From the NCBI GenBank assembly GCA_028716245.1, contig JAQUQW010000002.1, forward strand, positions 72,947-136,946: DNA of 64,000 nucleotides, written 5' to 3'. Position 1 is the first letter of the stretch. Each line of letters begins with the position of its first letter. A model generated the notes under the pieces. That model did no database searches. It saw nothing but the letters and a program-made list of their open reading frames with translations, and had not been told where the DNA came from. Both the position numbers and the translations under genes were made by a program. Positions 4,085 through 48,708 of the stretch are shown here, in pieces. The stretch is from Candidatus Omnitrophota bacterium. GTDB lineage: Bacteria > Omnitrophota > Gorgyraeia > Gygaellales > Profunditerraquicolaceae.

Positions 4085-4094
4085 TCTTTAAAAT

Positions 4095-4871: not shown

Positions 4872-6428
4872 ATGGTTAAAATCAAAAGGGCCCTGATTAG
4901 TCTATCGGATAAAACCGGCATTGTGGAATTAGCCGGGCAGTTGCGGAATTTCGGCGTGGAGATTATTTCTACCGGCGGCACGGCAAAACTTTTACGCCAA
5001 AATGATATCGTAGTAACCGAAGTTTCTGAGTATACGGGGTTCCCGGAAATACTCGATGGAAGGGTAAAAACCCTGCATCCCAAGATTCACGCCGGCCTGC
5101 TTGCCCTGCGCAATAATCCTGAACATTTGCGGACATTAGCTGAGCATAATATCTTCCCCATTGATATGGTCGTAGTTAATTTATACCCTTTTGAAAAGAC
5201 TGCGCAGAAACCCGGGGCAAGTATTGAAGAGGTTATTGAGAATATCGATATCGGCGGGCCTTCCATGCTGCGTTCAGCCGCTAAAAACCATCAGTCGGTA
5301 GCGGTAATTTGTAATCCGCAGCGTTATGCGCAGGTAATCGCTGAACTTAAAAAATATAACGGCGCTTTATCCGAGGATTTAATGCGTCAATTAGGCGTGG
5401 AAGTTTACGGGCACACCAGTAAATATGACGCGGCAATTTATAATTACTTATCTAATTTTTATCAAACTAAAAAAGAAGCAGAAAATTTTCCGCAAGAGCT
5501 AGACTTAGCTTTTGAAAAAATTCAAGATTTGCGTTACGGGGAAAATCCGCATCAAAAGGCAGCTTTCTACAGGGAAAAAGGAAAATCCTCCGGCTTAATT
5601 AATTTAAAACAACTGCAAGGCAAAGAGCTTTCTTTTAACAATATCCTGGATCTTGACTCCGCGCTGGAATTGGTCAAGGAGTTTAAAAATCCGGCGGCGG
5701 TAATCGTTAAACACAATAACCCTTGCGGAGCCGCGGAAGATAAAAAATTGGACCGGGCATATTTAAATGCCTGGAAAACCGATAAGCTTTCGGCTTTTGG
5801 CGGTATTGTGGCCTTAAACCGAAAAATGGATTTGGCAACCGCCAAAGTCATACTCAAGAGCGGATTCCTAGAATGCATTATCGCTCCCGGTTTTGATCAA
5901 GAAGCGATAAATTTATTTAAAGAAAAGAAAAATTTACGCCTGCTTGAGCTAAAGGATTTGAATATTATCGATGAGCCGCAGGTCAAACGCGTCAGCGGCG
6001 GCATGCTTTTGCAGGGGAAAGATTTAGCAACCCTGGATTTGAATAACCTGAAGGTTGTCACTAAAAAGAAGCCTAGTAAAAAAGAGTTGGCAACTTTAAT
6101 TTTTGCCTGGAAGGTAGCCAAGCATGTAAAATCAAACGCCATTGTTTTGGCTTGCGGAACCAGGACCGTCGGTATTGGCGCCGGGCAGATGTCCCGCGTA
6201 GATTCGGTAATGATCGCCAAAAATAAAGCCGGAACTTTAAGTAAAAATTGCTGTTTGGCTTCGGATGCCTTTTTCCCCAAAGCAGACGCCATCTCCTGGG
6301 CGCATAAAGCCGGGGCCAAGGCGATAATCCAGCCCGGAGGCTCTATCGCCGATCAAGAAATTATCGCTGCCTGCGATAAATATAAGATTGCCATGGTTAC
6401 TACCGGCCTGCGGCACTTCAAGCATTAA
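4872..6428 (+). CDS. purH: bifunctional AICAR formyltransferase / IMP cyclohydrolase
   Basis: 518 aa with the full-length PurH pattern (ALISLSDKTG..LHPKIHAGLLA..VVVNLYPF..; C-terminal AICARFT domain). Confidence 0.92.
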   Translation: MVKIKRALISLSDKTGIVELAGQLRNFGVEIISTGGTAKLLRQNDIVVTEVSEYTGFPEILDGRVKTLHPKIHAGLLALRNNPEHLRTLAEHNIFPIDMVVVNLYPFEKTAQKPGASIEEVIENIDIGGPSMLRSAAKNHQSVAVICNPQRYAQVIAELKKYNGALSEDLMRQLGVEVYGHTSKYDAAIYNYLSNFYQTKKEAENFPQELDLAFEKIQDLRYGENPHQKAAFYREKGKSSGLINLKQLQGKELSFNNILDLDSALELVKEFKNPAAVIVKHNNPCGAAEDKKLDRAYLNAWKTDKLSAFGGIVALNRKMDLATAKVILKSGFLECIIAPGFDQEAINLFKEKKNLRLLELKDLNIIDEPQVKRVSGGMLLQGKDLATLDLNNLKVVTKKKPSKKELATLIFAWKVAKHVKSNAIVLACGTRTVGIGAGQMSRVDSVMIAKNKAGTLSKNCCLASDAFFPKADAISWAHKAGAKAIIQPGGSIADQEIIAACDKYKIAMVTTGLRHFKH

Positions 6429-6431
6429 GGT

Positions 6432-7781
6432 ATGCCCTACCCACAAGTTTTAGAATACCTGAATTCTTTCGCTAACTACGAAAAAAACACAAACTATTCC
6501 TATAAAGAAACAATCCGGCTGGCCCGTATGCGGGATTTTTTGTCTTTAATCGGGGATCCCCAAAATTCTTTGCGCGTGATTCATGTTGCCGGCACCAAAG
6601 GCAAAGGCTCGACTTGCGCTTTCACGGCCTACATTCTCAGGGAAGCGGGTTTTTCCGTCGGGCTCTATACTTCCCCCCACCTGGATGATTTTAGAGAAAG
6701 AGTAAGAATTTTGATCCCCATAAAGCCGTCATTGCGAGGGCACAAAGTGTCCGAAGCAATCTCGTCCCTTGATTTTGAAGGCATGATCTCTAAAAATGAA
6801 CTAATCGGTTTAGTCCAGGAATTAAAACCGGTAATAAATAAATACAACCGCCATTCAAAATACGGGAGGCTTTCTTTTTTTGAAGTATATACCGCGCTGG
6901 CTTTCCTGCATTTTTTGCGCAAGCAGGTTGATTTTGCAATTTTAGAAACCGGCATGGGCGGCAGGTTAGACGCTACCAATACTGCCGACTCCCTTGCCTG
7001 CGGGATTGCCCCGCTTAGCCTTGAGCATACGCAGAAACTGGGTAAAACTCTGGCCAAGATCAGCGCGGAAAAAGCAGGGATCATCAAAAGCAAAGGGGCA
7101 ATCGTAGTTTCCGCCCGGCAAGATAAAGAAGCGGCAAAAGTTATTTATAATCGGTGCAAAAAATTCCGGGCCAGGTTTTTTGAAGTGGGCAGGCAGATTA
7201 AATATTTTAAGTCCGGCCGGGAGTTTACCATCAAAGGTTTGCATAAAATTTATAAGCATCTGCGCCTGCGCCTTTTGGGAGCTCATCAAATGGCCAATGC
7301 TTCCCTGGCTGTTGGATTAGTTGAGGTTTTGAGTTTTTACGGTTTTCATATCGGCAGCTGGGAAATCCGCAGGGGCCTCTATAACACAATTTGGCCCGGC
7401 AGGTGCGAAGTGATTCAAAACAACCCCCGGATTGTTTTGGACGGGGCGCAAAATTTTTCCTCCGTGGATGTTTTAAAGAAAGCGATAAAAGAGAACTTTA
7501 AATATAAAAAACTTGTTTTGGTCTTGGGAATCTCGGATGATAAGGATATCGCCGGAATATGCAGGGTACTTAGCTCTCTGGCGGATGAGGTTATCTTGAC
7601 GGCTGCCGCAACCCCCCGGGCGCTTGACCCTGTGAAATTATCCGGCTATTTTAAGAAAAAAGTATATTTGACGCAAAGCGTAAAAGAGGCTAAAATTTTA
7701 GCTAGGAAAATAGCGCGCAAAGAGGATTTAATTTTAGTGACCGGTTCATTATTTGTGGTTGGAGAATTCAGGGATGTTTAA
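6432..7781 (+). CDS. folC: folylpolyglutamate synthase / dihydrofolate synthase
   Basis: HVAGTKGKGST Mur-ligase P-loop, 449 aa, FolC-like length and order. Confidence 0.88.
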   Translation: MPYPQVLEYLNSFANYEKNTNYSYKETIRLARMRDFLSLIGDPQNSLRVIHVAGTKGKGSTCAFTAYILREAGFSVGLYTSPHLDDFRERVRILIPIKPSLRGHKVSEAISSLDFEGMISKNELIGLVQELKPVINKYNRHSKYGRLSFFEVYTALAFLHFLRKQVDFAILETGMGGRLDATNTADSLACGIAPLSLEHTQKLGKTLAKISAEKAGIIKSKGAIVVSARQDKEAAKVIYNRCKKFRARFFEVGRQIKYFKSGREFTIKGLHKIYKHLRLRLLGAHQMANASLAVGLVEVLSFYGFHIGSWEIRRGLYNTIWPGRCEVIQNNPRIVLDGAQNFSSVDVLKKAIKENFKYKKLVLVLGISDDKDIAGICRVLSSLADEVILTAAATPRALDPVKLSGYFKKKVYLTQSVKEAKILARKIARKEDLILVTGSLFVVGEFRDV

Positions 7782-10270: not shown

Positions 10271-11271
10271 TGAAAGGAAAGGAAGAAAGAGCTTTGAGAA
10301 AAATTCTGATTTTGTTATTTTTCGCGTTTATTTTATCCGGCTGCGCTACTTATAAATTTCAGAAATCCGTTTCATCCGGAAATCAGGGTTATTTGGTTAC
10401 TTATGATGGGGATCCTATTTTGGAATATACCATTGGGAAAGAAAAAACCCTGCCGGATTTAGCTTTAGCCAAGGAGCGTTTTAAGCGCCGCCGGTCGACA
10501 ATTGAGTATTATTATAAGCAGAGCGGCCAGATTGAGTCCCGATTTAAAGAATTCCTCTGGGATGTGCCGGCAATGTGCATGGATTTTGTGAGCGGTGTTT
10601 TACGTTGGCCGTTTATTGCCGTATCCGATTATAAATACAACCATAATCCTAAATATAAAGAAAGAATGGACAGGCTGGATCAAGAGAGGGAGGCATTGGA
10701 GAAAGCCCGGATAAACAGCTTAAAAGAAAAACTTACTGCCTATATCGCTCAAGATCTAGCCAAAGAACATTTACCACAAAGTAAAGTTGTTGAAACCCCC
10801 GTTACGCCTAAATCTCCTGAGCCGGTTGTTTTGCCGTTTGCTCAGGGGGCCTTGCCGCCAGCCCCACCGGTATCTTTGGCAGTTCAGACGCAAGTTCCTA
10901 AAAAAATAGAAACACCTAAGACCGAAACACCAGTTATAAAAGAACCAATTTCTCCGGTCTTGGCCACCGCACCGGCACCAATCAAAACAGTATTGGAGCC
11001 TCCGGTTGCCGTGATTACTGCAAAACCCATAAAAGGTTATTCTCCGCTTACGGTAAAATTTTCCGGGCAGAAATCATATTCTAAAAACGGCAAAATCGTT
11101 TCTTATAATTGGGATTTTGGCGACGGAGATACCTCATCCAAGAAAAATCCCGAGAACACTTATTGGAGTACTGTTTATGGAGCGCGTAATTTTACCGTAA
11201 CCCTTACAGTCAAGGACGCAGCAGGCTCAACCTCCAGCGCCACTTCAATAATCGAAGTATCCACCCCCTAA
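10270..11271 (+). CDS. lipoprotein with proline-rich linker and C-terminal PKD domain
   Basis: Lipobox LSGC, a Pro/Thr/Val-rich spacer, and a PKD-like domain (YNWDFGDGDTS...FTVTLTVKDAAG). Confidence 0.7.
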   Translation: MKGKEERALRKILILLFFAFILSGCATYKFQKSVSSGNQGYLVTYDGDPILEYTIGKEKTLPDLALAKERFKRRRSTIEYYYKQSGQIESRFKEFLWDVPAMCMDFVSGVLRWPFIAVSDYKYNHNPKYKERMDRLDQEREALEKARINSLKEKLTAYIAQDLAKEHLPQSKVVETPVTPKSPEPVVLPFAQGALPPAPPVSLAVQTQVPKKIETPKTETPVIKEPISPVLATAPAPIKTVLEPPVAVITAKPIKGYSPLTVKFSGQKSYSKNGKIVSYNWDFGDGDTSSKKNPENTYWSTVYGARNFTVTLTVKDAAGSTSSATSIIEVSTP

Positions 11272-11311
11272 AGGCGAAACAGTTTCCCAGCTAATCGGGA
11301 AACAGGGTTAA
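11272..11311. repeat. family-2 repeat unit (CGAAACAGTTTCC + GCTAATCGGGAAACAG modules) flanking transposase 2
   Basis: Contains the near-palindrome GAAACAGTTTC and the AATCGGG module. Its inverted counterpart is at 11801-11847 on the other side of the transposase gene. Confidence 0.7.
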
Positions 11312-11788
11312 CTAAAGTAAAAATTTATTCAAAAGCCCGTAATTATTACCAAGATTTCTTTCCGTGTAACTGCAAAAAGTATAATCTTTGGGGCTGTTTA
11401 CTAATTTTGCCCTTACAGGGTTTGTTTCGATATAGGAAATACAGTCTAGCACATACCGATTTTTAACAATCAATTTCGCTTTAAATTTACCCTGCCAAAG
11501 ATGGCCAACCTTGTTGTATTTTTTATTATAATAAGCAGTATAGGAACGTTGCAGGCATTGCATAAAATTAGATAATTTTTCCGGCACGACCGGTTGCCCC
11601 ATCAAATGGACATGATTAGGCATTAAGCAGTAACCATATAGATGGAAAGAATACTTCATTTTGTAATGTTTTAGTTGTCCAAGGTAGAACCCGAAGTCAC
11701 TTTTTTCAATAAAAACTATTTGTTTCTGATTTCCTCTTGCATAAATATGATAACAGGCGTTTTCGATTAATATTCTTGTTTTTGTCAT
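11312..11788 (-). CDS. IS200-like Y1 (HUH) transposase, RAYT-like (copy 2)
   Basis: 158 aa with HUH motif (PNHVHLM), conserved YHIYARG N-terminus and the Tyr-containing C-terminal helix region (YIETNPVRAKLV). It has family-2 repeats on both sides. Confidence 0.8.
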   Translation of the reverse strand: MTKTRILIENACYHIYARGNQKQIVFIEKSDFGFYLGQLKHYKMKYSFHLYGYCLMPNHVHLMGQPVVPEKLSNFMQCLQRSYTAYYNKKYNKVGHLWQGKFKAKLIVKNRYVLDCISYIETNPVRAKLVNSPKDYTFCSYTERNLGNNYGLLNKFLL

Positions 11789-11800
11789 TTCTCCTCCTTA

Positions 11801-11847
11801 GCCCCCGTTTCCCGATTGGGTCGGAAACAGTTTCGGGTTTTGGGTTT
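11801..11847. repeat. family-2 repeat unit (CCCGATTGGG + GGAAACAGTTTCG modules)
   Basis: GCCCCCGTTTCCCGATTGGGTCGGAAACAGTTTCGGG is an inverted copy of the element at 11272-11311. Confidence 0.7.
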
Positions 11848-13375
11848 AATTTAGTAGTTTATCCAGGCTTCGGTATTGCACTGCCTCCGCAACATGCTCG
11901 GCGCAAATTATTTCCTCTTGGTTTAAATCCGCAATCGTCCGGGCAACTTTCAGTATTTTATCATAAGCCCTGGCGGAGAACCCTAATTCGGACATCGCCA
12001 TCCGTATCAACTTTTGCGCGTTCTCATCCAGAAGACAATGTTCCTTGATTAATTTACTCTGCATTTGGGCATTGCAAAATATTCCCGTTGATTTAAATCT
12101 TTCCCGTTGAATGGCGCGCGCATTTTCCACGCGCTGCCTGATTGCTTGCGAGGTTTCCGTGTTTTTTATCTCGGATAATTCCCGGTATTTTACCTGCGGA
12201 ACTTCAATATGTATATCAATCCGGTCAAGCAGGGGGCCGGAAATCTTGCCTAAATAATTCCTGATTTTTGTGGTATTGCAATGGCAGGTTTTCTGCGGGC
12301 TAAAATAATTCCCGCAGGGGCAAGGGTTAAGGGCTGCGGCCAAAATAAAATTAGCCGGAAAAACCAAAGTCCCTTTTAAGCGGCTGACGCAAATTAAATT
12401 ATCTTCCAGCGGTTGCCTCAATGCTTCCAAGGCCTTACGGCTGAACTCCGGTAATTCATCCAGAAATAAAACTCCATGATGAGACAGGCTTATTTCTCCC
12501 GGCTTAGGAATGCTGCCTCCGCCAATTAATGCGATATCTGAAATACTGTGGTGGGGAAAGCGGAAAGGCCGGGTTCCGATAAAACCATCCTTGTTTAACA
12601 ATGCCTTTGCTACTGAATGGATCCGGGTTATTTCCAGGGCTTCTTGTAAGCTGAGGCTGGGCATAATGGTGGGGATTCTTTTGGCAAGCATAGTTTTACC
12701 GCTGCCCGGCGGCCCCAGCAAAACAATATTGTGCCCGCCTGAGACAGCTACCTCAATAGCTCGCTTAGCAAAATATTGGCCTTTGACTTCGGAAAAATCC
12801 AGGCTGTAATTCGCGTTTGTCTTAAGGATTTCTTCGGGAGCCAGTTTAAATGGCTGCCTGAGGCCGGGGTCGGCTAAGAATTGCACGACTTCTTTTAAAG
12901 TTCTTAAAGGCCAGGCAGATATTTCCGGTATAATCCCGGCTTCTTTGGCATTTTCTTCGGGAAGTATAAGGTTCTTCAGCGGTAATTTTGCCATGGTTAA
13001 ACTTATTGCCAGGACTCCGTGAACTGGCCGTAGCTGCCCGTCCAGAGATAGCTCTCCCAGAAAAGAGTAATTTTTAATAAGATCCTCATTAATTTGTTTG
13101 GTTGCCGCCAGAATGCCTAAAGCAATGGCTAAGTCAAAGCATGCCCCCTCTTTTTTGATGTTGGAAGGGGCCAGGTTCACGGTTATTCTCTCCGCGGGCC
13201 ACTGGAAACCCGAATTTTTGATTGCCGAGCGCACCCTCTCTTTGCTTTCTTTTATCGCCGTGTCGGCTAAACCGACCAAGGTAACTACCGGAAGCCCCCT
13301 GGCAACATCGATTTCTATTTCAACCGGGTAGGCTTCCAGGCCCAAGAGGCCAAAGCTGTAAATTTTTGAGATCAT
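11846..13375 (-). CDS. comM: Mg-chelatase-like AAA+ ATPase ComM/YifB
   Basis: 509 aa with N-terminal Lon-like S5 fold domain, Walker A GPPGSGKT and a C-terminal ChlI/YifB region. Confidence 0.88.
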   Translation of the reverse strand: MISKIYSFGLLGLEAYPVEIEIDVARGLPVVTLVGLADTAIKESKERVRSAIKNSGFQWPAERITVNLAPSNIKKEGACFDLAIALGILAATKQINEDLIKNYSFLGELSLDGQLRPVHGVLAISLTMAKLPLKNLILPEENAKEAGIIPEISAWPLRTLKEVVQFLADPGLRQPFKLAPEEILKTNANYSLDFSEVKGQYFAKRAIEVAVSGGHNIVLLGPPGSGKTMLAKRIPTIMPSLSLQEALEITRIHSVAKALLNKDGFIGTRPFRFPHHSISDIALIGGGSIPKPGEISLSHHGVLFLDELPEFSRKALEALRQPLEDNLICVSRLKGTLVFPANFILAAALNPCPCGNYFSPQKTCHCNTTKIRNYLGKISGPLLDRIDIHIEVPQVKYRELSEIKNTETSQAIRQRVENARAIQRERFKSTGIFCNAQMQSKLIKEHCLLDENAQKLIRMAMSELGFSARAYDKILKVARTIADLNQEEIICAEHVAEAVQYRSLDKLLN

Positions 13376-16896: not shown

Positions 16897-16949
16897 GGGG
16901 GACGTTTATATTTTTTTAAAGTTGAAGCTGTAAAAAATAGAAACGTCCC
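16897..16949. repeat. family-3 long inverted repeat (GGGACGTTT[A/C]TATTTTTT arms)
   Basis: Left arm at 16897-16917 and right arm at 16933-16949. It is itself bracketed by a 9-bp inverted repeat, GGCATAAAA at 16845-16853 and TTTTATGCC at 16976-16984. Confidence 0.7.
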
Positions 16950-17012
16950 ATTTCTTTTAAGGCGGACAGCAAGTTTTTATGCCCCCGTCGGCAAAATCAG
17001 TAAAAAAAGTAA

Positions 17013-20327: not shown

Positions 20328-22524
20328 ACTCATAAATAGGGACAGCGACCATTTTTTCAAAAACCTTTGGATTCGTAAAAAATGGTCGCTGTCCCTATTT
20401 ATCCTGCTATCTTTAATCAGCCCGCTTGGCGCAAAAAGCGATTCCGCGCAGGAAGATCAGATAGTTGAAGAGAGTCCGAAGGATAAGATATCCTTGGACC
20501 TGAAAAATGTGGATATTGTTGAGTTATTGCGGATTGTCTCGCTTAAAACCGGAAGGACAATCGTTCCCAGCAAGGATGTTTCCGGCCGCATCACCATCTA
20601 TTTAAGCCAGGTTGCCTTTGATGACGTCCTGGATATTATCCTGCTTACTCAAGGGTTGGCCCTAAACAAAAAAGATAACGTGTATTATGTGATGAGTGAA
20701 GCCGAATACAAAAAAATGTATGGCCGGGATTATATTGACCAGAGAAAAATTGAAACAGTCAAGCTTTCCTACGCCAAGCCTTCCATAATTTTTAACGCGC
20801 TCGGCCAGCTTAAATCCGATGTCGGTAAAATCGTAGTTGATGAAGCCAGCGGCACGATAATCCTGATCGATATCCCGGAAAAGCTGGAACTGCTTCAAAA
20901 AACAATCAAAGAATTAGACCAGCCGTTGACTACCGCTATCTATGACCTTAATTACATTAAGCCTGCCGATGCCAAAACCCAGCTTAACGCCGCCATTACT
21001 CCGGGTACAGGCGAGGTAATTATCGATGAAAGAAACGGCAAGGCCATAATTTCGGACCTGCCCAGAAAAATAGATAAGTTAGGGATGCTGGTGCGTGAGA
21101 TAGACGAGGAATCCCGCCAGGTTTATATTGAAGCCGATATCGTCGAGCTTACTTTGGATAATCAATTCCAAAGGGGGATAGACTGGGAAAAGCTATGGAG
21201 TTCTGCGGCAATGAATGGATTGGATTTTTCCGGGAATTTTCCTTTAGCCGCTTTAACGGCAGTGGGGGCAATAACTCAGAAAATCTCAGTGGGTACCTTT
21301 GCCACCAATCATTACCAGGCGATCCTGAATTTTCTAAATACCTACGGAACTACGCATGTTGTTTCCCAGCCGAGGATTGCCGTAGTCAATAACGAAGAAG
21401 CCAATATTATGGTCGGTACGCGCGAGGCGTATATTACTCAGACGCAAAGCCAGGCAACCGCGACCACCGTAACTTCTGAAACCGTAGAGTTTATCGATGT
21501 TGGTGTTAAATTAAAAGTTGTACCTAAAATCAGCGCCGATGATTTTATTACGATGAAGATAAAACCTGAAGTCAGTTCTGTTACCAGGACGCTTACTACT
21601 TCTCTGGGTAGCGTTGTTCCAATAGTGCAAACTTCTCAGTCAGAAAGTGTCGTAAAAATAAAAGACGGGATGATGATTATGATCGCCGGAATGACTAAAG
21701 TTGAGAAGACCGACACAATCAACGGCTGGCCGGTATTGTCAAAAATCCCTTTCTTAGGAGTATTGTTTAGCAATCGCGTGAAGGATACCAAGAGGACCGA
21801 AGTAATTATTTTTCTTACCCCGCACCTGTCGCGCGGCGACGCGGGGTTAAGAGGGGATGAGATAACTAAAATATTGCCGATGGAGAATTTACCGGAGCGC
21901 TTGCAAAACAAGGTAGTCAGGGATAAAGCAATAGATAAGGGGCTATTTACTCCTGAAAAGATGAAGGAAGAATTGGCCAAGAAGCAGGCAATAGAGGTAG
22001 CTGCCGAAGAAACAGCCGAAAGGACCGCCGCAGACAAATTGGCAAAGGCGGCAGAAAAGGCAGAAAAGGCAGCGGTCAAACAAACAGTTGCCGCCGAAGT
22101 AAAGAAATCCAGCCCAAGAGAAGCCGCCAAAGAATATTACCAAAAAGGCCTGCGCGCGCAGGCGGATTCCGATAATGAAGAAGCAATCCGTAATTTTATA
22201 AGAGCCGCGCAGTTGGATAAAAAATACGCCGCCGCTTACAATAGTTTAGGGATTATTTATGAGCAGGAGAGTAAGCCCGAGAAATCCGAGGAGATGTATC
22301 TAAAGGCCGTTTCAGCTGACGAGCGTTATTGCCCGGCCTATTCAAATTTAGCTTTATTTAATGAAAATCGCAAAGATTTTACCAAAGCTTTAGAGTATTG
22401 GCGCAAACGCGTTTTATACGGCGATCAAAATAGCGAATGGACAAAAAAGGCTATACAGCGGATAAAAGAACTTGAGAGCAACAAAGGCGAAACTGTTTCC
22501 GATTCAATCGGGACAGGGGGGTAG
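20311..22524 (+). CDS. gspD: secretin (GspD/PilQ family), paralog 2, with C-terminal TPR extension
   Basis: N0-like domain (LKNVDIVELLRIVSLKTGRTIVP), secretin C-domain (VVSQPRIAVVNNEEANIMVG), then a Lys/Ala/Glu-rich linker and TPR repeats (AIRNFIRAAQLDKKYAAAYNSLGIIY...). Its ATG overlaps the paralog-1 stop by 17 nt. Confidence 0.85.
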   Translation: MKANNKLINRDSDHFFKNLWIRKKWSLSLFILLSLISPLGAKSDSAQEDQIVEESPKDKISLDLKNVDIVELLRIVSLKTGRTIVPSKDVSGRITIYLSQVAFDDVLDIILLTQGLALNKKDNVYYVMSEAEYKKMYGRDYIDQRKIETVKLSYAKPSIIFNALGQLKSDVGKIVVDEASGTIILIDIPEKLELLQKTIKELDQPLTTAIYDLNYIKPADAKTQLNAAITPGTGEVIIDERNGKAIISDLPRKIDKLGMLVREIDEESRQVYIEADIVELTLDNQFQRGIDWEKLWSSAAMNGLDFSGNFPLAALTAVGAITQKISVGTFATNHYQAILNFLNTYGTTHVVSQPRIAVVNNEEANIMVGTREAYITQTQSQATATTVTSETVEFIDVGVKLKVVPKISADDFITMKIKPEVSSVTRTLTTSLGSVVPIVQTSQSESVVKIKDGMMIMIAGMTKVEKTDTINGWPVLSKIPFLGVLFSNRVKDTKRTEVIIFLTPHLSRGDAGLRGDEITKILPMENLPERLQNKVVRDKAIDKGLFTPEKMKEELAKKQAIEVAAEETAERTAADKLAKAAEKAEKAAVKQTVAAEVKKSSPREAAKEYYQKGLRAQADSDNEEAIRNFIRAAQLDKKYAAAYNSLGIIYEQESKPEKSEEMYLKAVSADERYCPAYSNLALFNENRKDFTKALEYWRKRVLYGDQNSEWTKKAIQRIKELESNKGETVSDSIGTGG
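20334..20402. repeat. REPIN-like element B (family 1), 69 nt, lying in frame inside the 5' end of secretin paralog 2
   Basis: Arms are at 20334-20358 and 20378-20402. It is translated as INRDSDHFFKNLWIRKKWSLSLF within the predicted signal peptide. Confidence 0.85.
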
Positions 22525-22566
22525 GTATCATCCCCATGTCCCGAACAACTTGGAAACAGTTTCGAT
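22508..22566. repeat. GC-rich hairpin (CGGGACAGGGG...CCCCATGTCCCG) overlapping the secretin-2 stop, plus a family-2 core GGAAACAGTTTCG
   Basis: 12-bp stem with one mismatch at 22513-22548. The palindromic family-2 core is at 22551-22563. A likely terminator/REP-like site. Confidence 0.55.
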
Positions 22567-24938: not shown

Positions 24939-25359
24939 AAATAGGATTTTGGTGAAAATTGATGAGCTTGATGGTTATCTTGATGAGCTTGAACAGATTG
25001 CCCCGGCAAAATTGAAATTTAAAGAATACCAGGTAATCGAAAAAAAACGCAGTTGTGAAAGGTTATTACAGCTTTCCATTGAAGCTGTAATCGATATTTG
25101 CAAATTTTTTGTTTCGGGGATGAGATTAGGATTGCCTGCTGAGGAGAATGACCTTTTTGATAAAATGCAAAAGAAAAAATTATTGTCTAAGGAGATGGCG
25201 GTGATTTTAAAAGAAATGAAAGGTTTTAGGAATATTTTGGTTCACGAATATGCAGCCGTGGATGACGAACTTGTATTTAAAGCAATAAAGACAAAATTAA
25301 AAGATTTTAGGAGATTTAAGAAAGAAATCTTAGCAGTATTGGCAAGAGTTAGCAGATAA
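24928..25359 (+). CDS. HepT-like HEPN toxin (DUF86)
   Basis: HEPN R-x4-HxY motif (FRNILVHEY). It overlaps the MNT gene by 11 nt. Confidence 0.8.
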   Translation: MLDKNRILVKIDELDGYLDELEQIAPAKLKFKEYQVIEKKRSCERLLQLSIEAVIDICKFFVSGMRLGLPAEENDLFDKMQKKKLLSKEMAVILKEMKGFRNILVHEYAAVDDELVFKAIKTKLKDFRRFKKEILAVLARVSR

Positions 25360-25423
25360 GGGGATATCATGTTTAAGATTAAAAATGTCCAATTTGAAAT
25401 GTCCAATGTGAATAAAATAGGGA

Positions 25424-25479
25424 CAGCGACCGTTTTTTGGTCGTTTTGCTTAGAGAAAAATGGTCGCTGTCCCTATTTA
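25424..25479. repeat. REPIN-like element C (family 1, CCG variant of the arm)
   Basis: AAAATAGGGACAGCGACCGTTTTTT, a 13-nt spacer, then AAAAATGGTCGCTGTCCCTATTTA. Confidence 0.85.
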
Positions 25480-25586
25480 AAAAAGAGTATAATGCGCAAT
25501 GAAAACGAGTAGTTTACCCATTGAAAGAATATATGATAAATAGTATATTATCTGTAGATGAAAGAAGGGCAGCAGAAGAGGATGAA

Positions 25587-26927
25587 ATGAATAAATATAC
25601 TGTTGGCATAATTCTGGGTATTTTAGGCGCGGGGTTAAATTGCCAGGCGCAGGCGAATCAGGTCTTAGAGCAGGCGCCTTTTGTCCTGGAAGATAATTTA
25701 GCCGGCCCGGCCACGGTAGAACCAGAGCCGATCTTTGCCACAGGAATAATCAAAACTATCTGTGTATCTTATGAGTTTACCGGCCAGGTGAGTTTAGAAG
25801 CCAGCACCAATGGAGGCGTTGATTACACAAAAATAATCAATGGCTCACCGCTTGTTGATGGATTTATTCCGGGAAACCAGCTGCGCTTTAGGGCAAATAT
25901 CGGACCGGCAAGCAGTTTAAAAAAATTAACCATTGGTTACACTGATTCATCAGGAGTATCCAGATTATACCGCAACCCCGATTTAGCAAATTATAAAAAT
26001 CACCGTGAAATTTATATTTCCGGAGGCAGCCAGGAAGTATTTAATTATCCCCTGGAAATAAAATTGGATCCTTTAGCAGCCGGCACTGAAATTTATTTTA
26101 CCGCGGCTGACGGTCAAACTCCGCTTTATTATTATTTAGAAGATCCCGCGCGCTGCTACGTGAAGGTTCTCCAGATCCCCAAAGAAGGCACAAAAATTTA
26201 TGTTTACTGGAAAAATAGGGACAGCGACCGTTTTTCTCCAAGTGAAACAACCAAAAAACGGTCGCTGTCCCTATTTTTAGACGGCAATAAAGTTTTTCCG
26301 TTTTTTGAGGATTTTAACGATGCCTCTTTAAACGCGGAAAAATGGGAAATAATTCCCGGGCTAAAAAAAGAATACAGCATTAAAGATGGATATTTACGGA
26401 TTAAAGATTGTTTAGTGGTAACGCGAAATTTTAAAACCCAACAGGGCATCCTGGAGTTCAAAGCCAAGGCGGAAGAGAACGCGGGGATCCAGGTAGTTGT
26501 GCGCACAAAAGTTTCCGCGGGGTTATCTCCTTACGAACAAATAGTTTACTCTTCGAATTATCCGGGAGCAGAACATACTATCGCGATCAATAACATTGCC
26601 AAGGTGAATATAAGTAATCCGATAAAACCGCTTACCTATTATATCTATCAAGCAACCATCAATTCCACCGGCATTCTTTTTGAAAGATACAGTGAAGACC
26701 GGAAGGAAAAACAGGCCGAGATAAAATTTTTGGATGTGGGGAATTTTAGTGAAGGTTATATTGGTTTAAAAGCGGATGCCGCGCCGTTTAATGCCGGCAG
26801 TGTTTATTTCGATTGGATCAGGGTCAGGCCGTATGTGGAAGTTGAACCAAAGGCGGTGATAAATAGGGACAGCGACCGTTTTTCTCTTCTAGGCGACCAT
26901 GAACCTGTTGCTGAGGTGATGAGATGA
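25587..26927 (+). CDS. secreted DUF2341-like + LamG/concanavalin-like domain protein, carrying an in-frame REPIN insertion
   Basis: Signal peptide MNKYTVGIILGILGAGLNCQAQA preceded by an AGAGGA RBS (the ORF track start at 25521 is probably too far upstream). PLEIKLDP...YYYLED...YVYW resembles DUF2341. NDASLNAEKWEII...GYLRI resembles LamG-like. The ORF is uninterrupted through REPIN D. Confidence 0.6.
   Translation: MNKYTVGIILGILGAGLNCQAQANQVLEQAPFVLEDNLAGPATVEPEPIFATGIIKTICVSYEFTGQVSLEASTNGGVDYTKIINGSPLVDGFIPGNQLRFRANIGPASSLKKLTIGYTDSSGVSRLYRNPDLANYKNHREIYISGGSQEVFNYPLEIKLDPLAAGTEIYFTAADGQTPLYYYLEDPARCYVKVLQIPKEGTKIYVYWKNRDSDRFSPSETTKKRSLSLFLDGNKVFPFFEDFNDASLNAEKWEIIPGLKKEYSIKDGYLRIKDCLVVTRNFKTQQGILEFKAKAEENAGIQVVVRTKVSAGLSPYEQIVYSSNYPGAEHTIAINNIAKVNISNPIKPLTYYIYQATINSTGILFERYSEDRKEKQAEIKFLDVGNFSEGYIGLKADAAPFNAGSVYFDWIRVRPYVEVEPKAVINRDSDRFSLLGDHEPVAEVMR
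26214..26277. repeat. REPIN-like element D (family 1, CCG variant) embedded in frame in a coding sequence
   Basis: Translated without a stop as NRDSDRFSPSETTKKRSLSLF between the DUF2341-like and LamG-like parts of the host ORF. Confidence 0.85.
26860..26886. repeat. solo family-1 REP arm (left arm only) forming the 3' end of the DUF2341/LamG ORF
   Basis: AAATAGGGACAGCGACCGTTTTTCTC with no intact right arm. It is translated as INRDSDRFSL at the C-terminus. Confidence 0.75.
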
Positions 26928-26932
26928 AAGCG

Positions 26933-26968
26933 GCCCTATTTCCCGATTGGGTTGGAAACTGTTTCGGA
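26933..26968. repeat. family-2 repeat unit (CCCGATTGGG + GGAAACTGTTTCGG) immediately upstream of the giant gene
   Basis: GGCCCTATTTCCCGATTGGGTTGGAAACTGTTTCGGAGG. Its 3' end supplies the GGAGG ribosome-binding site 9 nt before the ATG at 26980. Confidence 0.7.
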
Positions 26969-26979
26969 GGAGTGGTTAG

Positions 26980-29900
26980 ATGAGTAATCGGCAGAAAGCA
27001 AAAATAGCTACGCGGGTAATCCTGGTGATGCTCTTTACAGCCGCCTTCGGGATGTTCTTGTCTTACCTATATCATCACTCCATCGAAGCGGTAGAGACAA
27101 ACTCTGTTGTCATAAGTAACCCTACCGCCACCACGGCAAATGCCAGCCAGAGGAAATTAGCGCGCGCCACCAACGGAGATTTATACGCGGTTTATGCCCG
27201 TCTTGACGGGGCAAACCAGCAGATTTATTATGCCAAGTCCACGGATAACGGCGCAACCTGGATAGAACAGGGCAAGGCCCACGCCGATGTAGCGGCTGAG
27301 CAGAAAGAACCGGCAATCGCCATCGATTCTTCGGATAATCTTTACATTGCCTGGGCCGGCAAGGGCTGGGGAACCAACACCGCTAATTTTAATATTAAAT
27401 ACCGTAAATATAATAAAGCAACCGCGTTATGGGATACACAGGAATCCGTGACCGACGCTGCGTATGACCAATTCGCGCCGGCGTTAGCTTTGGACTCAAG
27501 CAATAACATTCATGTTGCCTGGTATGGCAAAGGCTGGGGAACCAACACCGCCAACAATAATATTCAATATCGCAAAAGGACAACCTCCTGGCAAACACAG
27601 GAATCCGTGACCGACGCTGCGTATGACCAATTCGCGCCGGCGTTAGCTTTGGACTCAAGCAATAACATTCATGTTGCCTGGTATGGCAAGGGCTGGGGAA
27701 CCAACACCGCCAACAATAATATTCAATATCGCAAAAAGACAGCCTCCTGGCAAAAACAGGAATCCGTAACCGACGCTGCTTACGATCAACTTTCGCCATC
27801 GCTTGCCCTGGACTCAGCAGATTACGTTTACGCGGTTTGGGCCGGCAAAGGCTGGGGAACCAACACCACTATTGATAACATTGAATATTCAAAACGCGCC
27901 ACTCTCAGCACTGACTGGGCAGCCAACCGTGAGTCAGTTACTGACAGCGCAAGCGCGCAACTTTCGCCATCGCTTGCCCTGGACTCAGCAGATTACGTTT
28001 ACGCGGTTTGGGCAGGCAAAGGCTGGGGAACCAACACCGCCAACAATAATATTCAATATCGCAAAAGGACAACCGCCTGGCAGGGGCAATCAGGAATTAC
28101 GGATTTGGCGTCAGACCAAACCAATCCCACGCTTTTTTGGCATCCACAGCCAACCATATTCACCAGCGTAAAAACAAACATTATTACCTCAGGCCACAGT
28201 TTTATCTGGACTACCGGTTCAGGAGTTAAATTCTACGCCAGCGACGGAATTATCTTCCCTAAGGTTTATTTTGTTTTGAGCCCGGCGAATTCCACGCCTA
28301 CTGTCGGCTCAAGCACGGATGTAACGATTACCGCCGCCAAAAAAGACGCGGCTAACGCCGATGTTACCGTAACCGATTATAATGTGGCAACCACAGTAAG
28401 TGTAAGCGCCGACGGGGCGGCTAAATTTACCGCGCCGAGTTCCGGAAACCCGATTTCTCTTCGGGATATTGATTGGAAAAGCGGCGCAGCCAGCGTAACG
28501 ATTACCGATGATACCGCCCAAAGCGTTACCGTTAAGGCGGCAGACCAGAATAATGCTTCGATCACCGGAACAACCTCAGTTTCCTTCCAGCCGACAGCGG
28601 CAGATAAATTACTCCTTAATCACCCCGCGGCTATTGATGCCGGCACCCGCGCCGCGTATATAGTAACCCTGGCGGATGCCCGTAACAATAACGTAAATGC
28701 CGGCTCAGGCGGACAGGTAATTTATCTGTTTACAACTTCCGCAAGCGCCAACGCGAAATTTTACAACGCGGCCTCCGGCGGCAAGGCGATTACCAGCGTA
28801 ACTATTCCCAGCGGCAGTTCTCTGGCGAGCGCCTGGTATTACGACGATACTGCCGGCACTTATACCATAACCGCTTCAGATGCTTCCCCTGCAAACGGCG
28901 CAATTGGGCTGGCTGACGCGCAGGATACAATCAAAGTTAACCCCGCAGCCGACCTGAGCAAAAAATATAAGATTAAATTTGACAATGATGAAGCGGAAAT
29001 CGGCGATTTCCGGGCCAAGGACTTCAAACCTCACGTAAAAATGAAACGCTGGGGCGAAGAATGTTACTTTAGCATCGAGTTTCCCGAGAGCAAAATACCC
29101 GCCAAGGATAAATCCGTAGGCGTAGAGGCAGACAAGATAAAATGGAAGTCACCGGATTCAGAGGCGCATTTTTACAAGAAGGGGAGCAAGCAAATCAGCG
29201 CCAAGGATAATAAAGGAAAAAGCCGCGGCTTTTTGAAGAATGAATCCGGCGCTTTGGAGTTTGAAGTGGTTTTGGATAAGAAACCGGCCTCCAATATAAT
29301 CAGCTTACCCATAGAAACCAAGGGCCTTAAATTCTATTATCAGGGGCCGTTAACTGCCGAAGAAATAAAGCAGGGAATAGTCCGGCCGGATGAGGTGGTG
29401 GGGTCTTACGCGGTGTATCATGAAAGTAAAAATGACGGCGCATATAACACCGGCAAGGCCTTCCATATTTACCGGCCAAAGGTCATCGATGCCACGGGGA
29501 ATACGATTTGGGGCCAGCTGGACATCGACGCAGTAAAAGGCGCCTTAACCATCACTATTGACCAGTCCTGGCTAAATAGCGCGGCTTATCCGGTAACCAT
29601 TGACCCTGAATTTGGTTATATGTCGATAGGTTCAAGCTCTATCCCTTTGAACAATATAACCCGCGGTTCAAAATTTACCGCCCTCGTAATGACGCCGGCT
29701 ACAATCGGAGCTTATTTGGGAAATACCGATGCCACTGCTTCTCACACCGCCAAGTTCGCTATTTATAAGGCGAGCGATTCATCCCTTGCAGGCCAGACCC
29801 AGGAAGTAACTATTCCCGCCTCATCTACAGGCTGGTATACGGGCGTCTATATTGTTGGCCCAAGCTTAACCGCCGTAGATTACGCCTTAGTGGCCAAAGC

Positions 29901-42610: not shown

Positions 42611-42680
42611 AATAAAGGGACCGTTTCTATTTTTTAATAATAGAAACGAAGAAAAAAATAGAAGCGGTCCCTTTATTTTA
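42611..42680. repeat. family-3 long inverted repeat immediately after the giant-gene stop
   Basis: AATAAAGGGACCGTTTCTATTTTTT at 42611-42636, a 19-nt spacer, then AAAAAAATAGAAGCGGTCCCTTTATTTT. The spacer contains a partial extra arm copy (ATAGAAACG). Confidence 0.8.
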
Positions 42681-43422: not shown

Positions 43423-43435
43423 ATATCATGAGAAT

Positions 43436-43551
43436 AAATAGGGACAGCGACCATTTTTCCCATTCTTTCCGTCATTCCCGCGTAAGTGGGAATCTGATCC
43501 CCGCTTTTGCGGATATGACAATTTTGAAAAAATGGTCGCTGTCCCTATTTA
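43436..43551. repeat. REPIN-like element F (family 1) with an extended 65-nt spacer containing two additional small hairpins
   Basis: Left arm at 43436-43460 and right arm at 43526-43550. The spacer has ATTCCCGCGTAAGTGGGAAT and CCGCTTTTGCGG hairpins. The right arm encodes residues KKWSLSLFI of the downstream signal peptide. Confidence 0.8.
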
Positions 43552-44297
43552 TTTTGTTTTTTATCCCAGCCTGTGCCTGGGCTGAAGTGAGCACTTCGCT
43601 TTGGCAGACCAAAAAATCCCAGCATTTTATTATTTATTATCAGGAAAGCGCCGATGATTTTGTCAATGAGCTGGATGTTTCAGCGGAAAATTATTATAAC
43701 AGCATCGTCGAAGAATTAGGTTTCCGCCGGATGGATTTCTGGAGCTGGGATGACCGGGCAAAGATATATTTATTCAATAACAGCGCCGATTATTTAAATG
43801 AGACCGGCGGCTTGGCCTGGAGCGGGGCGCAGGTTTCGGTAAAGCTACGCACGATCAAGACCTTTATCGGCCAGGAGACTTTTTTCGATTCTATACTTCC
43901 GCATGAGCTGACGCATATAATCTTCCGGGAATTTATCGGTACCAAAACAGAGCTGCCGCTTTGGCTGGATGAAGGTATCGCCTGTTCTCAGGAAAAAAGC
44001 AGCCTGATTTCGCGGATGGATTCAGCCAGGGCGCTGGTTAAGCAGGATACATATTTAAAATTTGATAAACTCTTCCAGATATATAACTCCACGCTTATCG
44101 TGCCGAATGTATTTTATTCCGAGTCCGCATCGATTATCGTTTTTTTGCTAAAAAAATATGACCGGGAATTATTTTTGGATTTCAGCCGGAAGCTTCGCGA
44201 CGGCATGCAGTGGAAAAACGCCCTTTTAAACACGTATCATTTTTCAAATTTTGAAGAAATGGAATCTGCCTGGAAGGATTTTATGTTGAATAAATAG
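43515..44297 (+). CDS. secreted putative zinc metallopeptidase (HExxH ... E)
   Basis: Signal peptide MTILKKWSLSLFILFFIPACAWA. HELTH plus a downstream LDEGIA is consistent with a gluzincin-like fold, but family assignment is uncertain. The stop TAG at 44295-44297 lies inside the REP arm. The ORF track start at 43428 would include the whole of REPIN F. Confidence 0.5.
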   Translation: MTILKKWSLSLFILFFIPACAWAEVSTSLWQTKKSQHFIIYYQESADDFVNELDVSAENYYNSIVEELGFRRMDFWSWDDRAKIYLFNNSADYLNETGGLAWSGAQVSVKLRTIKTFIGQETFFDSILPHELTHIIFREFIGTKTELPLWLDEGIACSQEKSSLISRMDSARALVKQDTYLKFDKLFQIYNSTLIVPNVFYSESASIIVFLLKKYDRELFLDFSRKLRDGMQWKNALLNTYHFSNFEEMESAWKDFMLNK

Positions 44298-44315
44298 GGA
44301 CAGCGACCATTTTTC
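44292..44315. repeat. family-1 REP arm (left) upstream of the RAYT gene
   Basis: AAATAGGGACAGCGACCATTTTTCC. It has no local partner; its inverted partner lies 3' of the transposase gene. Confidence 0.85.
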
Positions 44316-44412
44316 CTTCAGTCGTTCTTTGATAGATTAGCTTAAATATTTTAGTTAGATTTCCTTTTTTCTGGCGTCTATTGATAATAGAAGAAAGGGA
44401 GGAAAAACTAAT

Positions 44413-45084
44413 ATGCCTAGAATTGCCAGAGTTGTAGCGATAGGTCAACCTCACCACATTACACAAAGAGGTAACTATCGGCAAGACGTATTCCTTAACG
44501 CGGATAACCGAAAACAATACCTTGCCTGGATTAATGAATATAGCGTAAAATACGGGGTTCTCGTTTTGGCCCATTGCCTGATGGCAAATCATGTTCACTT
44601 TATCGCTATTCCTAATGAAAGCGATTCGCTGGCTAAAACATTCAATACCGCTCATATGCGTTATTCCCAGTATTTTAATAAAAAGTTGAAGCAGAGCGGG
44701 CATCTTTGGCAGGGACGTTTTTATTCTTGTGTGTTGGATCAATCTCATCTTATACTTGCCGCTCGTTATATTGAAAGGAATCCTGTGCGCGCAGGACGCG
44801 TAGAGAAACCTTGGCAGTGGCCATGGTCAAGCGCCGCCGCCCATACGAATAGGAAGGATAATAAATCGATTGAGTTTGGGGATCTTCTCGGGATTATCGG
44901 CATGTCAAGCACCGCGTGGGAAAAATACATTGATTCCGCGGAAGAGGACAATTTTTTACAGGATATAAGAAAGCATACGTATGCCGGTCGTCCCCTCGGG
45001 GCGCCGGAATTTACTATAGGTTTAGAGGAAAAATGTGGTAGAAGGTTATGCGCGTTACCGATAGGGAGGCCAAGAAAAAGCTAG
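44413..45084 (+). CDS. REP-associated tyrosine transposase (RAYT; IS200-like Y1 HUH transposase), copy 1
   Basis: 223 aa with HUH motif (ANHVHFIAI) and a conserved C-terminal Tyr-helix region (YIERNPVRAGRV). Inverted family-1 REP arms lie 97 nt upstream and directly after the stop. Confidence 0.85.
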   Translation: MPRIARVVAIGQPHHITQRGNYRQDVFLNADNRKQYLAWINEYSVKYGVLVLAHCLMANHVHFIAIPNESDSLAKTFNTAHMRYSQYFNKKLKQSGHLWQGRFYSCVLDQSHLILAARYIERNPVRAGRVEKPWQWPWSSAAAHTNRKDNKSIEFGDLLGIIGMSSTAWEKYIDSAEEDNFLQDIRKHTYAGRPLGAPEFTIGLEEKCGRRLCALPIGRPRKS

Positions 45085-45108
45085 AAAAATGGTCGCTGTC
45101 CCTATTTA
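45085..45108. repeat. family-1 REP arm (right) directly after the RAYT stop codon
   Basis: AAAAATGGTCGCTGTCCCTATTTA, the reverse complement of the arm at 44292-44315. Confidence 0.85.
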
Positions 45109-47250: not shown

Positions 47251-48708
47251 ATGAAGATTGAAGCCTTAGACATAAAAGAAATCGGAAGGATCGAAGAGCT
47301 TAAGCAGGGGATTGTGAAAATCAGCGGTTTGCCTAATTGCGCCTATGGGGCTGTAATCGAATTCGATAATGGATTAAAAGGAATGATCGTTGAATTTGAC
47401 GCGCAATTTGCCTTTGGGATTGTTTTTGGGGATGAACGCAGGATTAAGGTCGGCGATACGGTTTCCACCCGCGGCCAGCTGCTTAATGTTCCGGTAGGGG
47501 ATAATTTTATCGGCAGAGTGGTTGATCCTTTGGGTAACCCGATAGACGCAAAAGGTAAAATTGAGCCGGCAGCGGTAAATCCGGTCTTCCATCAGGCATC
47601 CGGGGTTATGGAGCGCGAGCCAATAAGCCATCCTTTGCATACTGGGATAAAAATTATCGATATGCTTATCCCGCTGGGCAAAGGCCAGCGGGAATTGATC
47701 GTCGGAGACCGGCAGATCGGCAAAACCAGCATCAGTTTGGATATGATCATCAATCAAAAAGGCAAAAATGTTATCTGCATTTACTGTTGGATCGGAGGAA
47801 GCAGCGCGGCTTTTAATAAGATTATCCAGGTGCTTAACCAACAGGGTTGTATGGACTTTTGCCTTGCTGTCTGCGCCTCGGCAAGCGCCTCGGCAAGCGA
47901 ACAATATATTTGTCCTTATACCGCCGCGGCATTAGGTGAATATTTTATGTATAATGGTAAGGATGTCCTGGTAATTTTTGACGATTTGACTAAGCACAGC
48001 TGGGTTTACCGGCAGATGTCTTTGCTGCTTGAGCGGGCCCCGGGAAGGGAAGCGTATCCGGGAGATATCTTTTTCTTACATTCACAGCTTATGGAGCGCG
48101 CCGGCCGCCTGAAGAAAGAATTCGGAGGCGGGACAATGACATTCTTGCCGTTAGCCGAAACACTGCAAGGTGATATTACCGGTTATATCTGCTCGAATAT
48201 CGTTTCGATGACCGACGGGCAGATTTATTTAAACTCCGGGCTTTTTCAGGAAGGTTTCAAACCGGCGATCGATTTGGAACTTTCAGTTTCGCGTATCGGA
48301 AGCAAGGTGCAATGCCCGGCCATCCGTAAATTAAGTGAAGGCCTGCGTTATGAATACGTGCAATACCGTTCTTTACTGCGTTTGACCCGCCTGCGCACCA
48401 AACTTAGCCCGGAGAGCGCCCAGCAACTGCAGCGGGGCCGGGCCCTTTATGAGCTTTTGATTCAGGAAAACGGTTCTCCTTTATCTCAGGCAGAGGAGAT
48501 CGCTGTTTTTTTTGCCTTTCGCCAGAAGATACTTGAGTCAATCAGTATCGAGCAGGTAAAATTGTTTAAAAATAATTTCTTTGCCTATTTAGGCAAGCAT
48601 CAGCAGAATTTAGTGGGGCAACTGGATAGCAAAGGTGAGCTTACGGAAGAAATTAAACTGCTTTTGGATAAAACGATAAAAGATTTTTTCCGCAGCCAGG
48701 ATAAATAG
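47251..48708 (+). CDS. atpA: F-type ATPase alpha subunit (divergent)
   Basis: Walker A GDRQIGKTS and alpha-like N-terminal beta-barrel and C-terminal helical domains. It contains a 12-nt exact tandem duplication (47875-47898) encoding ASASASAS. The stop TAG overlaps the REPIN I arm. Confidence 0.8.
   Translation: MKIEALDIKEIGRIEELKQGIVKISGLPNCAYGAVIEFDNGLKGMIVEFDAQFAFGIVFGDERRIKVGDTVSTRGQLLNVPVGDNFIGRVVDPLGNPIDAKGKIEPAAVNPVFHQASGVMEREPISHPLHTGIKIIDMLIPLGKGQRELIVGDRQIGKTSISLDMIINQKGKNVICIYCWIGGSSAAFNKIIQVLNQQGCMDFCLAVCASASASASEQYICPYTAAALGEYFMYNGKDVLVIFDDLTKHSWVYRQMSLLLERAPGREAYPGDIFFLHSQLMERAGRLKKEFGGGTMTFLPLAETLQGDITGYICSNIVSMTDGQIYLNSGLFQEGFKPAIDLELSVSRIGSKVQCPAIRKLSEGLRYEYVQYRSLLRLTRLRTKLSPESAQQLQRGRALYELLIQENGSPLSQAEEIAVFFAFRQKILESISIEQVKLFKNNFFAYLGKHQQNLVGQLDSKGELTEEIKLLLDKTIKDFFRSQDK

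Follow-up and report, generated by a model that had tools for sequence, protein, structure and literature searches.

In-frame family-A palindromes in the linker and at the 3' end of a DUF2341 gene from an Omnitrophota bacterium

How does a gene that appears to be intact come to carry a perfect palindrome of a dispersed repeat family inside its reading frame? The question is raised by a gene for a predicted secreted protein with a DUF2341 domain, located in a 64-kb stretch of the genome of a Candidatus Omnitrophota bacterium (contig JAQUQW010000002.1). This stretch is referred to here as the window, and it is the sole portion of the genome behind the repeat and copy counts given for it. The open reading frame (ORF) passes through a palindromic doublet of a repeat designated family A and ends in a truncated second copy. 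An earlier examination of the letters alone (the sequence-only reading) had described the doublet as a REPIN (a doublet of repetitive extragenic palindromic [REP] sequences), placed it between a DUF2341-like and a LamG-like part, and proposed that the gene either has a REPIN-tolerant linker or was truncated at its 3' end by a REP. Our analysis makes it probable that the gene received a non-autonomous palindromic element within its coding sequence, where the element has been kept and translated.

The internal element is a 68-nucleotide (nt) perfect inverted repeat in which two 25-nt arms (26211-26235 and 26254-26278), complementary at 100% of their positions, enclose an 18-nt loop (26236-26253). 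Folded as single-stranded DNA, the palindrome gave -27.6 kcal/mol (z = -12.4), and an 81-nt RNA stretch around it gave -40.1 kcal/mol (z = -7.4). The ORF reads through it as ...VYW-KNRDSDRFSPSETTKKRSLSLF-LDGNK..., residues K209 to L231, with no stop codon, in agreement with the sequence-only reading. On the strand of the host gene, the element can be read without a stop in two of its three frames.

Two other, independent assemblies, L001 and L002, have the element at an identical codon position, in copies of the gene that share 89% and 88% protein identity with that of the window, and for this reason an assembly artefact is unlikely. Only three insertions or deletions tell the copies apart, one of 3 nt where the element meets the gene on the left, a duplication of 9 nt in L001 and a loss of 6 nt from the left arm of L002, each a multiple of three. 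Across the three genomes, 1 of the 94 arm positions compared is different, as against 11% of the flanking coding sequence. All three genomes have a G-C in both arms of the in-ORF copy at a place where the other copies of the window have an A-T, a compensated pair. The loop of L002 matched the window loop better when inverted (score of 14 versus 6) and was closest to the loop of the family-A copy at 48706 in the window, which indicates that the loop was flipped or replaced.

The host gene was evaluated as a single coding unit. Pfam placed DUF2341 (PF10102) at residues 166-255 of the window protein (E = 1.8e-9; 38.3 bits against a gathering threshold of 23.4), a match that extends across the palindrome-encoded insert. 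With Foldseek, the C-terminal part matched glycoside hydrolase (GH) family 16 glucanases and the C-terminal β-sandwiches of GH43 enzymes (E of ∼1e-6; target-normalised template modelling [TM] score of ∼0.5), and the Pfam scan gave no Laminin_G hit for it. The term "LamG-like" in the sequence-only reading therefore holds at the level of the fold class, at which the part is predicted to be concanavalin A (ConA)-like or LamG-like, but membership in the LamG family goes beyond that evidence. A database search returned 80 homologs of the window protein, the named ones from Omnitrophota metagenome-assembled genomes (MAGs). Both motifs that flank the linker were present in a single chain in 67 of the 80, and the 32 homologs that were aligned in full were colinear with the window protein over both domain parts. 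The homologs thus do not end ahead of the palindrome, which is the outcome that the sequence-only reading had named as its refutation. A database protein 100% identical to that of the window (P0001; one member, one contig) is annotated in a Candidatus Omnitrophica MAG on a 487-kb contig.

The AlphaFold model of the window protein has a mean predicted local distance difference test (pLDDT) score of 77 and two confident β-sandwich regions. Scores below 50 were confined to residues 1-25 (the signal peptide), 214-226 (within the insert), 326-336, 339-341 and 428-446 (the tail that overlaps the 3' family-A copy). Pairwise ratios of nonsynonymous to synonymous substitutions (dN/dS) against seven homologs were 0.12-0.18 upstream of the linker and 0.08-0.11 downstream of it; against the two element carriers, L001 and L002, they were 0.09-0.14 on both sides, at a dS of 0.40-0.48. 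Both halves of the gene are thus under purifying selection. These results support, on statistical and predicted rather than experimental grounds, a host gene that is one continuous, functional, two-domain gene.

The linker between the two domains proved to be a recurrent site. Measured from ...IPKEG to VFxFFDDF, the linker segment is a constant 36-37 amino acids (YYGNKEAKDxSxPxxVF), free of repeats, in ∼30 distant homologs, compared with 38-79 amino acids in the close clade. The linker of L005 has no palindrome at the DNA level. As judged from this comparison of sequences, the lack of the repeat in the ∼30 homologs and in L005 indicates that the internal element is an insertion and not ancestral sequence.

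Other members of the close clade have other palindromes in the same segment. Linker DNA contains a family-A palindrome in the window, L001 and L002; a family-B palindrome (AAAAATGGGACCGTTTCTATTTTT...) in L003, with one-arm remnants in L004a and L004b; a family-C palindrome (GTCATTCCCGCGGAAGCGGGAATC..., peptide IPAFAGMT) beside the family-B remnant in L004b; and a family-D palindrome (GTCATTGCGAGCC...GCTCCTCGCAATGAC, peptide VIASP...APRND) in L006. In a rough neighbor-joining tree from which variable columns were excluded, the genes with family A were nested within the clade that carries family B, and family D was on several separate branches, which implies at least five events at the linker. 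The L004 contig has two tandem DUF2341 paralogs, at 3295-4656 (P0009) and 5835-7277 (P0008), each followed by a gene for a small secreted protein. The linkers of these paralogs differ, one having the family-B remnant alone and the other family C together with the family-B remnant.

These lengths, together with the colinearity of the homologs, the dN/dS ratios and the low pLDDT at the insert, support the proposed REPIN-tolerant linker. The linker of this gene family is supported as an insertion-tolerant stretch, of low confidence in the AlphaFold model, between the DUF2341 sandwich and the predicted ConA-like domain. It is possible that the site is occupied repeatedly simply because it is the most permissive place in the protein, or that an existing palindrome attracts the next element, and both explanations may contribute.

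Under the insertion reading, the mobile unit comprises two 25-nt arms (ATAAATAGGGACAGCGACC[A/G]TTTTT) that enclose a loop of ∼18 nt; these arms also flank a gene for a RAYT-like protein (REP-associated tyrosine transposase) 18 kb downstream. The survival of the unit in the coding sequence is probably due to a landing site in a disordered linker between two β-sandwich domains, to the lack of a stop codon in the host frame, and to junctions that were adjusted by insertions and deletions in multiples of three. The product would be an extra peptide of 21-22 residues, NRDSDRFSPSETTKKRSLSLF. The linker is a site of recurrent landing or retention, at which orthologs have at least four unrelated palindromic families.

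Family A is a multicopy repeat in the window. The arm TAGGGACAGCGACC[G/A] occurs 22 times with up to 3 mismatches, compared with 0.83 expected, and none of 100 shuffles reached 22. These arms form ∼11 loci, most of which are 57-61-nt doublets whose loops are homologous and may be oriented either way, and only the doublet in the linker is internal to a gene, the rest lying between genes or at gene ends. Most copies are in very short intergenic gaps immediately past stop codons, and two ORFs, 43428-44297 and 47251-48708, even use the TAG of an arm as their own stop. Family A therefore habitually abuts the 3' ends of genes.

As the sequence-only reading had noted, both copies in the host gene have the CCG variant of the arm. 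This variant (GACCG instead of GACCA) was present in 4 of the 5 arms within 25300-27000 and in none of the 16 elsewhere in the window (Fisher P = 8e-4), and it is confined to three elements around the host gene, whose loops differ in type or orientation. The possibility that the flanking CCG copies (25418 and 26864) are direct copies of the in-ORF element was rejected because their loops are of different types or orientations.

The arms also flank a transposase gene in inverted orientation, with the left arm at 44295 (+) and the right arm at 45104 (-). The TAG of the left arm serves as the stop codon of the Peptidase_MA gene upstream. The ORF between the arms encodes a 223-amino-acid protein that matched Pfam Y1_Tnp above threshold (E = 4.1e-14; 53.2 bits). 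The same arrangement of an arm-flanked transposase gene was found in four to five other genomes, among them those of L016, L018, L020 and L084, with RAYTs that are 50-65% identical, and L127, a syntenic locus, lacks the entire unit. The doublets look like non-autonomous derivatives of this RAYT-type unit, by which they may have been mobilized, and are REPIN-like in function.

The label "REPIN" can be retained for the inverted doublets and their association with a RAYT-like gene, but not in its classical sense. A single arm folds at 0 kcal/mol and forms no hairpin of its own, and its tag reads ATAGGG, that is, ATAG and not GTAG; these elements are therefore not classical REPs. A RAYT gene that has long terminal inverted repeats (TIRs) on either side, with an accompanying family of TIR doublets, describes them better than a classical REP doublet does. 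The sequence ATAGGGACAGCGACC is a candidate single-stranded DNA target for the 223-amino-acid Y1 protein. An idea about the target site was based on the empty linker of L005, which reads TCTAAATATTTAGAT at the position of the right end of the doublet, and on the resemblance of AAATATTT to the two ends of the element joined together; it was dropped because the three empty sites of the syntenic, element-free L127 lacked any such motif.

The second family-A segment of the host gene is at its very 3' end. This copy begins at 26859/26864, and its loop matches the loop of the copy at 58311, in inverted orientation, at 17 of 19 bases (0 of 300 shuffles as good). No right arm was found at 26859-26903. 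The half-element that the sequence-only reading had located at 26860-26886 as the source of the end of the protein was thus correctly recognized as half of an element, but this segment, made up of the left arm and the loop, reaches ∼26903 and encodes residues I425 to E439. The sequence CCCTATTT at 26934 was considered as a relic of the missing right arm and was discarded; it belongs to the consensus of a second repeat family (family 2), and the fold of 26855-26950 was not significant (z = -1.8).

All of the aligned homologs end 3-12 residues past a conserved VEVEP motif, compared with 25 residues in the window protein. The gene has therefore been lengthened, by ∼13-22 codons, and not truncated. 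The proposal that a REP had cut short an originally longer gene, whose homologs would continue beyond residue ∼440, is contradicted by this alignment. Homology of the window to L001 and L002 ceases exactly between AAAT and AGGGAC. Downstream of the ortholog is a ParE toxin module in L001 and a gene for a small secreted protein in L003 and L004; in the window, a gene for a 5,207-amino-acid protein follows directly. A direct repeat of GGTGAT brackets exactly 60 nt at the 3' end of the window gene. The final 15 nt, GAGGTGATGAGATGA, may be the native end of the gene, going by a resemblance, and not a test, to GGAGATGAGCAGATGA in L003 and L004.

The second copy is at the place usual for family A; because its TAG is not read in the host frame and its right arm is missing, translation would continue through arm and loop to the TGA at 26925-26927. 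The tail may stem from an element that inserted in frame before the native stop and whose right arm then decayed, or it may be a deletion or rearrangement junction at the element. In L006, the C terminus of the ortholog (GFPIGSETVS, then stop) is encoded by a family-2 repeat, and with the window tail derived from family A, the 3' end of the gene is a second variable site.

Several explanations other than insertion and retention were weighed. One is that a mobile element has broken up a host gene that is decaying as a pseudogene and stays open only by accident. Stop-free passage is not improbable with two of three frames open on the host strand, and the 64-nt core of the element is not a multiple of three. 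However, the dN/dS ratios stay low on both sides of the element in the seven comparisons made, the three independent insertions and deletions all preserve the frame, and the C-terminal domain is modeled confidently and has residues conserved over the 32 aligned homologs, so that decay is highly improbable. A different explanation is that the palindrome has been co-opted, with a functional DNA or RNA hairpin or peptide serving, for example, as an mRNA processing or pausing site between domains or as a flexible spacer. The near invariance of the arms next to coding sequence with a dS of ∼0.4, the compensated pair common to all three genomes, and the presence of some palindrome in the linker of most members of the close clade are all in keeping with co-option. 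Yet L002 is short of 6 nt in one arm and has an inverted or replaced loop, L004a has only a one-arm remnant, so that a perfect hairpin is not required, and the peptides of families A to D are mutually unrelated. Arm conservation could also stem from a family-wide constraint or from copy correction. Co-option is considered unlikely.

At the 3' end, the solo arm could have arisen where a rearrangement or a deletion joined sequences, or where the assembly was mis-joined at a repeat, and not by an in-frame insertion before the native stop. The coincidence of the arm with the end of homology to L001 and L002, the lack in the window of the small secreted-protein gene that follows the L003 and L004 orthologs, the missing right arm and the occurrence of the tail on one contig only are what such a junction would leave. 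The resemblance of the last 15 nt to the ends of the L003 and L004 genes and the GGTGAT repeat around 60 nt fit an in-frame insertion instead, and a 25-nt arm is shorter than the k-mers usually used in assembly; the ORF is lengthened under either explanation. A junction or mis-join is a serious possibility at this end, although we lean away from it. Insertion, retention and translation of the family-A element also have to be set against several observations that weigh on the other side. No close relative with an empty site was present in the databases searched, the nearest homologs, 88-90% identical, all being carriers, and for this reason the insertion event and its exact boundaries are reconstructed and not observed. 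The degree of arm conservation is not explained by mere tolerance. A perfect 25-bp RNA stem could be a substrate for RNase III or an obstacle to ribosomes, and translation through the hairpin is something that we infer. The best NCBIfam match of the 223-amino-acid protein was REP_Tyr_transpos at 70.7 bits, below the cut-off of 80, and the 3' tail is known from the assembly of the window alone.

Family-A elements were also found in frame in other proteins. The 5' end of the Peptidase_MA ORF (43428-44297) of the window passes across a family-A doublet, where typical homologs start MKKIFLFL..., and the probable signal peptide of this ORF, MTILKKWSLSLFILFFIPACAWA, would start in a nested family-C element and continue through the right arm of family A. 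In close relatives, the N termini of Peptidase_MA are derived from family A (KKWSLSLF), family B (KNRTVPFIL) or family D. A family-A element is in frame in the interdomain linker of a MutL protein (L068, residues 352-367, between DNA_mis_repair and MutL_C), and another is in the hinge of an SMC protein (L112, residues 1155-1172). An intein that includes a LAGLIDADG domain is present in the N-terminal ATPase region of the same SMC gene (L112, 2422-7740).

An exact 21-nt segment of the arm, ATAGGGACAGCGACCRTTTTT, was present in at least 120 stretches of species-representative genomes (L007 to L126; for example, L068 [CAWKOO010000001.1], L045 [CAWBMP010000004.1] and L057), compared with ∼2 chance matches expected in 596 Gb by our own arithmetic. 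Among the matches listed, and counting labels from record titles, 50 were labeled Omnitrophota and 9 Nitrospirota or Thermodesulfovibrionia, the latter including contigs of 0.98, 1.7 and 1.9 Mb; other labels were Desantisbacteria, Aerophobetes, Deltaproteobacteria, Scalindua and more. Binning error is a possible source of the phylum labels of short contigs, but not of megabase contigs. The occurrence of the arm in so many stretches under many phylum labels argues, at the level of the records compared, against purely vertical descent, and such a spread is unusual among repeats of the REP type. Phage carriage was considered as a route between phyla and was set aside, as no exact match to the arm was found in IMG/VR viral contigs.

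The features of the window that bear on these results are collected in Table 1. The repeat that the sequence-only reading had seen after the half-element is genuine; it was placed in family D14, with five copies, and family 2 as a whole has about six loci in the window, with small internal palindromes and often just upstream of a ribosome-binding site. A scan of the whole window with Rfam gave no match, including for family A and family 2. Families A and B have GGGAC...CCGTTT in common, and the 6-nt deletion in the L002 arm gives family A the appearance of family B. In L001 and L004, two small minus-strand ORFs (∼142 and ∼53 amino acids) are located between an MNT/HepT toxin-antitoxin pair and the DUF2341 gene, and in L002 these ORFs are directly upstream of the DUF2341 gene. 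A comparison of 24555-25359/25415-25478 of the window with 2201-2774 of L001 and 2491-3064 of L004 showed only a family-A doublet in place of the two small ORFs. By sequence comparison, small cassettes appear to come and go around the DUF2341 gene.

Table 1. Positions of the host gene, repeat elements and transposase unit in the window
Feature	Position(s)	Strand	Basis or remark
Host gene, 446-amino-acid secreted DUF2341 plus ConA-like (LamG-like fold) protein (predicted)	25587..26927	+	ORF list, Pfam, Foldseek, dN/dS
Family-A palindromic doublet (REPIN-like), in frame as K209-L231	26211..26278	+	Inverted-repeat search, folding, L001/L002, pLDDT
Truncated family-A element (left arm and loop, without right arm), encodes I425-E439	26859..26903	+	Arm search, loop match, homology stop, pLDDT
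Last 7 codons and TGA stop (PVAEVMR, stop)	26904..26927	+	3' ends read directly
Intergenic family-A doublet upstream of host gene	25415..25478	+	Without counterpart in L001, L002; synteny resumes at right end
Family-2 repeat (CCCnATTTCCCGATTGGGTnGGAAACnGTTTCGG), between stop codon and ribosome-binding site of the 5,207-amino-acid protein gene	26934..26967	+	Repeat-family search
Further family-2 stretches	11260-11316, 11803-11855, 22478-22565, 52812-52868, 55867-55919, 62743-62840		
Family-B doublets (GGGACCGTTTCTATTTTT arms)	4098-4152, 16898-16950, 42617-42671		One directly after the stop of the 5,207-amino-acid protein gene
Family-A doublet with nested family-C palindrome in loop (43471-43519)	43436..43550	+	Within 5' end of Peptidase_MA ORF 43428-44297
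RAYT-like unit (Y1 transposase gene at 44413-45084 with an arm on either side)	44292..45107	+	Arm search, Pfam, NCBIfam

A translated palindrome is a kind of event that is already known from other bacteria. REPs wholly inside ORFs, notably those of replication and repair genes, as well as REPs near the ends of ORFs, have been described (Di Nocera et al., 2013; PMC3733652). The same study reported REP termini that supply TAG stop codons, two Xanthomonas species with differing REPs at nearly one and the same place in recB, and RAYT genes that lie between long TIRs, with TIR repeat families of moderate abundance. All of these features have a counterpart in the elements studied here. However, Omnitrophota is not among the phyla listed there, and the present elements differ in having ATAG instead of GTAG or CGTC, at least four unrelated families in one linker, and an arm identical over 21 nt under several phylum labels.

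With the REPIN/RAYT system, as described by Bertels and Rainey (2011; PMC3116915), the family-A elements have in common inverted doublets with a short spacer, a high copy number, a mostly extragenic location, arms that flank a Y1 transposase gene, and sequence conservation over long divergence. In contrast to that system, a single family-A arm has no hairpin, there is no GTAG, and the NCBIfam RAYT score is below the cut-off. The classic in-frame palindromes in functional genes are the Rickettsia palindromic elements (RPEs) (Ogata et al., 2000, as summarized in PMC10969869). The likeness to RPEs, at the level of description, extends to mobile palindromes in frame, peptides at sites compatible with the fold, and several families. 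RPEs are ∼150 bp and have no known dedicated transposase, in contrast to the 58-68 nt and the RAYT-like link here. No paper on such translated palindromes in Omnitrophota turned up in a literature search of incomplete coverage. What goes beyond the published picture is the presence of several unrelated families in one linker, the conservation of the arms above that of the host gene, and the 21-nt arm across phylum labels.

These results have consequences for annotation. In proteins of Omnitrophota, peptides such as NRDSDRF...KRSLSLF, IGTATVF...VAVPIY, IPAFAGMT and VIASP...APRND represent repeats that are translated and not signatures of protein families, and differences in length among orthologs at repeat sites are no sign of separate genes. 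For the study of evolution, the DUF2341 gene family, with a fixed-length ancestral linker and at least four element families in close relatives, is a compact natural experiment. It could help to show how proteins come to admit some mobile palindromes and not others, whether a palindrome attracts the next, and why near-invariant arms persist in a diverging gene. An arm common to genomes with different phylum labels conflicts with the usual picture of REPIN/RAYT systems as vertically inherited.

A broader proposal, which we regard as tentative and rather doubtful, is that in one Omnitrophota clade disordered segments are recurrent landing pads for a community of palindromic elements, and that the family-A arm is a RAYT-linked sequence that crosses phyla. 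The segments in question would be interdomain linkers, signal-peptide N termini and C-terminal tails, in which elements nest, replace one another and are translated, and the arm, identical over 21 nt and much better conserved than its host gene, would be part of a RAYT-linked element that moves between phyla and is not vertically inherited. If this proposal is true, such elements would steadily supply new sequence for linkers and signal peptides.

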